Sequence record: LC739537.1
DNA from: Escherichia phage phiWec188
DNA: 64,000 nt
Reading direction: 5' to 3' (one strand)
Positions 60,836 through 60,914 of the stretch are shown in pieces (position 1 is the stretch's first letter; each line of letters begins with the position of its first letter). Position numbers and translations under genes: made by a program. The notes beneath the pieces are model-generated. The model was not told where the DNA came from and did no database searches. It saw only the letters and a list, made by a program, of their open reading frames with translations.

Positions 60836-60914
60836 TGGAGGCGGGAATCGGATTCGAACCGATGATCTCCAGCATATGAAACTGGCGAGGACGACCAAAC
60901 TCCTCTATCCCGCT
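60836..60914 (-). tRNA. tRNA, CAU anticodon (Met/fMet/Ile2), 1:72 A-C mismatch
   Basis: hand-folded cloverleaf: U8, D-stem GAGG/CCTC, anticodon loop UUCAUAU, T-arm ATCGG-TTCGAAT-CCGAT, encoded CCA. Confidence 0.6.

Follow-up and report, generated by a model that had tools for sequence, protein, structure and literature searches.

The 64,000-nucleotide stretch of Escherichia phage phiWec188 analysed here (LC739537.1; hereafter the window) carries at positions 60836-60914, on the minus strand, a gene for a tRNA with the anticodon CAU, and this tRNA is best read, from the determinants that it carries, as a member of the initiator (tRNAfMet) class. We put at roughly three in four the probability that the phage makes, from this gene, a functional initiator-type methionine tRNA of its own, of the kind represented by the tRNAfMet of phage T5. 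Throughout, function is read from sequence in the light of published E. coli biochemistry.

ARAGORN predicts the gene, with coordinates exact, as a tRNA(CAU) of 79 nt, which reads, 5' to 3' from 60914 to 60836, AGCGGGA UA GAGG AGUUUGGUCGU CCUC G CCAGU UUCAUAU GCUGG AGAUC AUCGG UUCGAAU CCGAU UCCCGCC U CCA. A1 lies at 60914, C72 at 60840, U73 at 60839, and the encoded CCA at 60838-60836. In the acceptor stem, positions 2-7 (GCGGGA, 60908-60913) pair with positions 66-71 on the 3' side (UCCCGC, 60841-60846), forming G2:C71, C3:G70 and G4:C69. The D arm (60887-60905) consists of GAGG and CCUC on either side of an 11-nt loop and includes A11:U24 and G12:C23. The anticodon arm (CCAGU UUCAUAU GCUGG, 60869-60885) has the anticodon at 60878-60876, U32 and U38 in its loop, and a stem of C27-G43, C28-G42, A29-U41, G30-C40 and U31.G39, and the T arm (AUCGG UUCGAAU CCGAU) occupies 60847-60863. 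The Rfam tRNA model gives the sequence 50.0 bits against a gathering threshold of 29, flagging only pair 1:72 as non-standard; the MFE fold is a cloverleaf with A1 and C72 open (fold z-score -1.79), and the positions of the tertiary pairs are all intact. ARAGORN, Rfam and the fold thus agree with the earlier note that the tRNA has the anticodon CAU and an unpaired A1/C72. This is the only 1:72 mismatch among the 11 tRNAs of the window. The same note did not include U73, the combination of A11:U24 with G12:C23, or U32 and U38. A mature 5' end at G2 is unlikely; given the encoded CCA, it would leave an acceptor stem of 6 bp and a 3' overhang of 5 nt.

The 2.7 kb tested is identical to Escherichia phage phiWec190 (LC739539.1; Phapecoctavirus, Stephanstirmvirinae), whose record annotates the gene as tRNA-Met. 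A BLAST search of 5,426 E. coli genomes returned no tRNA match, so the gene was not copied recently from a host. The phage tRNA was therefore compared with host tRNAs position by position, using metZ, metT and ileX from the annotated genome of E. coli K-12 and 65 structurally equivalent positions. It matches metZ (tRNAfMet) at 44 of these, metT (elongator Met) at 32 and ileX (Ile2) at 28. In common with E. coli tRNAfMet (metZ/W/V and metY), it has an unpaired 1:72, the pairs G2:C71, C3:G70, G4:C69, G5:C68 and G6:C67, A11:U24 and G12:C23, G26, G30:C40, and a similar variable loop and T arm. It differs in having A1/C72 and U73 where the host tRNA has C1/A72 and A73, A29:U41 and U31.G39 where the host has G:C pairs, U32/U38 rather than C32/A38, and a D loop of 11 nt.

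Several of the shared features are those by which initiators are recognized. The determinants for formyltransferase are an unpaired 1:72 (major), A73, G2-C71, C3-G70 and G4-C69 (minor), plus R11:Y24 (PMC9976931), and all but A73 are present. A11-T24 and G12-C23, reported to be complete discriminators of fMet among bacterial CAU tRNAs (PMC1635315), are both present as well (GAGG/CCUC). What the phage tRNA has of the bacterial initiator, then, is the CAU anticodon, a 1:72 that is not Watson-Crick, the G2:C71/C3:G70/G4:C69 block and A11:U24/G12:C23; what it lacks is the C1/A72 identity, the three G:C pairs of the anticodon stem (or their relaxed form, R29G30G31/Y39C40Y41) and A73.

A profile log-odds test, with the initiator profile drawn from 101 viral initiator-like CAU tRNAs having a different D arm, and with position 1:72 as well as the D stem excluded, gave the phage tRNA +33.6 bits toward the initiator class, a score that we take as supporting evidence only, the contrast set being as small as 12 sequences (viral CAU tRNAs whose 1:72 is paired). 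The controls fell on their correct sides: metZ at +46.7, metT at -6.6, ileX at -45.5, the fM tRNA of T5 at +12.1 and its M tRNA at -49.3.

A phage-coded initiator tRNA is already known from T5, and the gene described here probably adds another case, one that has been mis-annotated. Chen et al. 1975, cited in PMC4810235, state in their title that T5 encodes tRNAs for both methionine and formylmethionine; the T5 gene is named tRNAfMet in PMC11464382, and a cyanophage tRNAfMet is mentioned in a review. The T5 record (NC_005859.1) annotates three CAU tRNAs, one an elongator Met, one an Ile2, and the third, T5t14 (32428-32505), an "initiator tRNA fMet," with the sequence UGCGGGU UA GAUC UCUGGUAGA GAUC G CUAGU CUCAUAA GCUAG AAAGAG GUAGG UUCGAUU CCUGC ACCCGCU U CCA. 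Going by that GenBank annotation, T5t14 is presumably the formylatable T5 species. It resembles the phiWec188 tRNA in its CAU anticodon, true 1:72 mismatch, U73, xGCGGGx acceptor with G2:C71/C3:G70/G4:C69, A11:U24 and encoded CCA, and in an anticodon stem with the same A29:U41/G30:C40/U31.G39; it too lies in a phage tRNA cluster that contains a separate Ile2-type CAU tRNA. The two are nonetheless well diverged, 42 of 60 comparable positions being identical: T5t14 has U/U at 1:72 where the phiWec188 tRNA has A/C, GAUC/GAUC as against GAGG/CCUC in the D stem, CUCAUAA in place of UUCAUAU as its anticodon loop, and a variable loop of 6 nt. What they share includes three departures from the bacterial consensus, namely the 1:72 mismatch, U73, and the anticodon stem.

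The last of these departures had been remarked on by the earlier note, which said that the three G-C pairs of the anticodon stem are lacking, and indeed A29:U41, G30:C40 and U31.G39 leave just one of the three. Bacterial initiators have three consecutive G:C pairs (29:41, 30:40 and 31:39) or, under a relaxed rule, R29G30G31/Y39C40Y41 (PMC1635315), and systematic mutagenesis found the middle pair, G30-C40, to be crucial and by itself able to sustain the growth of E. coli (PMC5389676). Since the phage tRNA retains this pair, the loss of the full set is not disqualifying. There are natural initiators with au/GC/GC, GC/GC/gu and au/GC/gu, in alpha-proteobacteria and some Mycoplasma (PMC5389676). 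The phage stem resembles such initiators in having A:U as its first pair, G30:C40 in the middle, and a G/U wobble as its third, and variants of this sort sustain E. coli (PMC5389676), but their third pair is G31.U39, while that of the phage is U31.G39, with the pyrimidine on the 5' side. The phage combination, au/GC/ug, thus breaks the relaxed rule (PMC1635315) at Y31 and lies outside the set of variants in PMC5389676. Formylation is unaffected by changes to the three G-C pairs (PMC6393288). A73 and C32 are both among the published determinants for MetRS, and A73 is a minor determinant for formyltransferase, so with U73 and U32 in their place, charging and formylation may be less efficient.

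How far viral tRNAs in general follow these patterns can be seen from a survey of 810 distinct tRNAs, taken from the window and from 240 IMG/VR loci that were picked by two D-arm patterns, with positions 1 and 72 unconstrained. A true 1:72 mismatch occurs in 11 of the 624 non-CAU tRNAs (1.8%), and those non-CAU tRNAs that share the same D arm mostly have G:C at 1:72 (20/28). Among CAU tRNAs with A11:U24, a true mismatch is found in 114 of 159, another 38 have only A:U or U:A, and G:C or C:G is confined to 4; among the 27 CAU tRNAs without A11:U24, 15 have G:C or C:G. A11:U24 is therefore accompanied by a 1:72 other than G:C in 155 of 159 cases, as against 12 of 27 for other CAU tRNAs (Fisher 1e-11). 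Within the 155 viral initiator-like tRNAs, the bacterial C:A accounts for only 37, and A:C, with 14, is the fourth commonest combination. U73 is present in 15. G30:C40 is kept in 148, compared with 70% of other viral tRNAs, and the full set of three G-C pairs is found in only 36. Each deviation of the phiWec188 tRNA (A:C at 1:72, U73, and the partial G-C set) thus recurs within the viral class.

The tRNA matches 274 phage records. Its close relatives came mainly from GenBank phage records, a narrow IMG/VR pattern returning only 5 loci, and 12 distinct sequences were used to look for covariation, drawn from Phapecoctavirus, Justusliebigvirus, an unclassified Klebsiella member of the subfamily, four IMG/VR contigs and a Brevundimonas phage. 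In every one of the 12, all 20 stem pairs are paired, and six of the pairs have undergone compensatory double changes. Three of these belong to the five pairs of the T stem, which appears as AUCGG/CCGAU, AUUGG/CCAAU, GUAGG/CCUAC, GUCGG/CCGAC and GCAGG/CCUGC. None of 500 shuffles scored as high for covariation, and the signal was lost when the 3' partners were slid. The loops are invariant, CCA is encoded, and G2:C71, C3:G70 and G4:C69 do not vary except for one G2.U71. Position 1:72, on the other hand, is unpaired in 12 of 12, though both of its sides vary (A/C, C/C, U/C, C/U and C/A), which points to selection for an open end. We discarded the idea that A1 pairs with U73 in a slipped register, as relatives with C1 or U1 together with U73 are unable to form it. 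Two relatives link the group to canonical initiators: that of the Brevundimonas phage has the canonical C1/A72, and that of Aeromonas phage Aes508 combines the same D arm and U73 with a full UCGGG/CCCGA stem.

Some homologous CAU tRNAs are irregular. Those of Erwinia phage MM7 and Hafnia phage SPARTY (Ounavirinae) have A1:U72, U73, the loop UUCAUUA (with U37) and U/U at 31:39, features unusual for any tRNA. That of Klebsiella phage Sugarland has an irregular acceptor stem with an internal A4/A69 mismatch, and that of Vibrio phage nt-1 an irregular acceptor in which ARAGORN leaves positions unpaired and finds no clean 7-bp stem.

One might suppose instead that the tRNA serves elongation, alone or as well as initiation: MetRS would charge it and EF-Tu would carry it to internal AUG codons, the mismatch being either tolerated or of a kind that permits both uses. 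This is unlikely, though it fares best among the alternatives. Two of the three G-C pairs are missing, the phage cluster holds no other candidate for an elongator Met tRNA, some homologues have a weak A1:U72 or U1:A72, pairs that elongators can carry, and the E. coli initiator, when unformylated, can go to EF-Tu and serve in elongation (PMC6393288). Against this, the relatives keep 1:72 unpaired while maintaining all other pairs, and A11:U24 and G12:C23 are not found in bacterial elongator Met tRNAs (PMC1635315). The phage tRNA lacks the Watson-Crick 1:72 and Y11:R24 of elongators (in E. coli metT, G1:C72 and C11:G24) as well as U4:A69 and A5:U68, the determinants of elongator MetRS recognition in E. 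coli. With position 73 and the anticodon stem masked in addition to 1, 72 and the D stem, the profile still scores it as an initiator, at +29.7 bits. T5, moreover, has an ordinary elongator Met tRNA besides its homologue of the tRNA discussed here, one that phiWec190 lacks.

A different possibility accepts the tRNA as an initiator but takes counter-defence to be the main role for which it was selected. As a poor substrate for the VapC/MvpT nuclease and for AtaT-type acetyltransferases, it would, by virtue of its altered 1:72/73 end and 38-39 junction, let phage translation start when host tRNAfMet is attacked. VapC of Shigella and Salmonella is described in PMC4105405 as cutting tRNAfMet between A38 and C39, where the phage tRNA has U38-G39, and the A38-C39 dinucleotide is absent from 64 of the 155 viral initiator-like tRNAs. 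However, the determinants of VapC recognition are not established. Similarly, AtaT acetylates an A1-C72 variant of E. coli tRNAfMet less well, but the G4G5G6:C67C68C69 block that it requires is still in the phage tRNA (PMC7595197). It has been hypothesized in general that phage tRNAs evade anticodon nucleases (PMC10264068), yet relaxed selection in the phage context could give the same variation. We consider it distinctly unlikely that counter-defence is the main role.

It is highly improbable that the gene is a decaying pseudogene. The homologues in phAPEC8 and Mt1B1_P17 are annotated "tRNA-Pseudo-CAT," and the Rfam score of the phiWec188 tRNA, 50 bits, is the lowest in its cluster, and its fold z-score is only -1.79. 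But a decaying gene would hardly keep 20 stem pairs across 12 distinct relatives from two or more genera plus the unclassified Klebsiella member of the subfamily, nor acquire compensatory double changes in six pairs while its loops stay invariant and its CCA encoded. The same architecture is found, moreover, in unrelated phage families (Demerecviridae, Straboviridae, Ounavirinae and Kyanoviridae). Stem conservation and covariation thus contradict the label given to the phAPEC8 and Mt1B1_P17 homologues.

The window has a second tRNA(CAU), at 63214-63288 on the minus strand, which from its determinants and its likeness to ileX should be read as tRNA-Ile2, lysidine-dependent and decoding AUA; the phiWec190 record annotates it as tRNA-Met. 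TilS of E. coli requires C4-G69 and C5-G68 (PMC1635315), and the determinants for IleRS are A73, C4-G69, U12-A23, C29-G41 and A38. Read from 63288 to 63214, the second tRNA has an acceptor that is fully paired, as the earlier note had it (GGCCCUG/CAGGGCC, followed by A73), and it carries G1:C72, C4:G69, C5:G68, U12:A23, C29:G41 and A38. It matches ileX at 48 of the 65 positions, metT at 42 and metZ at 35, and 36 E. coli genomes carry homologues of it with the annotation tRNA-Ile. That the tRNA at 60836-60914 is also an Ile2, with C34 made lysidine by TilS, charged by IleRS and reading AUA, has a probability close to nil and we reject it: T4 and T5 do carry an Ile2-type CAU tRNA, but the likeness to ileX (28/65) comes down to the CAU anticodon, the determinants in acceptor, D stem and anticodon stem all differing, with G4:C69 and G5:C68 in place of the pairs required by TilS, and U73, G12:C23, A29:U41 and U38 in place of those recognized by IleRS, all of which are found on the other CAU tRNA. 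Of the three identities that the earlier note had offered, then, the unusual initiator is the one upheld, by 1:72 together with G2:C71, C3:G70, G4:C69, A11:U24 and G12:C23, by a likeness that is closest to tRNAfMet, and by the architecture shared with T5; Ile2 falls for want of its determinants, and elongator Met is unlikely.

Both CAU tRNAs belong to a cluster of 11 tRNA genes (60836-63288, ARAGORN), all on the minus strand, and Rfam at gathering thresholds found nothing but tRNAs in the whole window. Because of the orientation of the cluster, the initiator-type gene, which the earlier note had called the first in the cluster, is the last in the order of transcription. A consensus scan found a sigma-70-like promoter (TTGACA-18-TATAGT, 11/12 matches) at 61598-61627 on the minus strand, upstream of the sub-cluster Gly-Gln-Pro-Ile-[tRNA-like]-CAU, and this candidate promoter likely drives the unit that ends with the CAU tRNA. 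It is one of three promoter-like sites on the minus strand with a perfect TTGACA -35 box (63500-63528, 62910-62939 and 61598-61627), each directly upstream of a tRNA sub-cluster. From the consensus scan, which gave a total number of sites not above that expected from shuffled sequence, this arrangement suggests that the cluster may comprise three transcription units.

The tRNA-like element of the last sub-cluster (60921-60989, minus strand), flanked by tRNA-Ile(GAU) and the CAU tRNA, combines an acceptor-like stem (UCCCGU/ACGGGA) with a perfect T arm (GCUGG UUCGAAU CCAGC), and its anticodon arm is replaced by a 5-bp hairpin (CACAA/UUGUG) whose loop is 3-4 nt long. The Rfam tRNA model gives it a sub-threshold 21 bits. 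It is conserved in phAPEC8 and in one IMG/VR contig and is without annotation in phiWec190 and phAPEC8. In the tRNA cluster of T5, "tRNA-like stable RNAs with unknown functions" are annotated. Compared with that of phAPEC8, the cluster of the window is a mosaic (61898-62275 and 62363-62505): the tRNA-Asn of phAPEC8 is replaced here by a 143-nt segment with an annotated 42-aa ORF, and its tRNA-Thr region by a segment of about 380 nt with a diverged tRNA-Thr. On the other side of the CAU tRNA, at 60453-60722 on the minus strand, is an ORF of 89 codons (MYTLKTIRKFSKEDEV...) with AGGA about 8 nt upstream and a start about 110 nt downstream of the tRNA; LC739539.1 has no CDS for it.

If the gene at 60836-60914 does encode an initiator of the T5 type, its product would come last in the transcript of a minus-strand tRNA unit and would be trimmed to a tRNA of 76 positions, with its CCA already encoded. 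Host MetRS would charge it by way of the CAU anticodon, and host Fmt would formylate the methionine, owing to the unpaired 1:72, then G2:C71, C3:G70 and G4:C69, plus the D-stem pair A11:U24. EF-Tu would be kept away by the mismatch and the formyl group, and IF2 would bring the tRNA to the P site, where the retained G30:C40 may be the minimal anticodon-stem signal for passing the steps controlled by IF3. The likely role of such a tRNA would be to supplement or secure the pool of initiator tRNA during infection.

The survey suggests that many phages carry tRNAs of the initiator type, and their commonness and poor labelling seem to be under-appreciated. In existing records the gene described here and its homologues appear as plain tRNA-Met or as pseudogenes, or go unannotated, and two recent papers on phage tRNAs state that phages avoid or lack tRNA-fMet, perhaps because such genes are mislabelled. 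A possibly comparable case is that of the Ounavirinae phage Sf14, whose two Met tRNAs were not called fMet by the isotype models of tRNAscan-SE, Cys scoring best. In the limited literature searched, none of the papers found connects phage tRNAs with the rule of three G-C pairs. If phage initiators do get by with minimal signals, then the stated avoidance of tRNA-fMet by phages would be in part a failure of classification.

It is tempting to go further and propose that many phages carry initiator tRNAs with only the minimal signals (a 1:72 other than G:C, G2:C71/C3:G70, A11:U24 and G30:C40) and that, in a branch of coliphages including T5, Phapecoctavirus and others, U73, often Y72, and G39 were selected for resistance to VapC/MvpT and AtaT. 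As a whole, this proposal is doubtful. The viral set nevertheless amounts to a natural mutagenesis series on initiator identity, with G30:C40 kept in 148 of 155, all three G-C pairs in 36 of 155, and almost any 1:72 that is not G:C, and the minimal requirements that emerge from it agree with E. coli genetics. Since initiator tRNA is a known target of toxins, a divergent phage copy is also a candidate for counter-defence.
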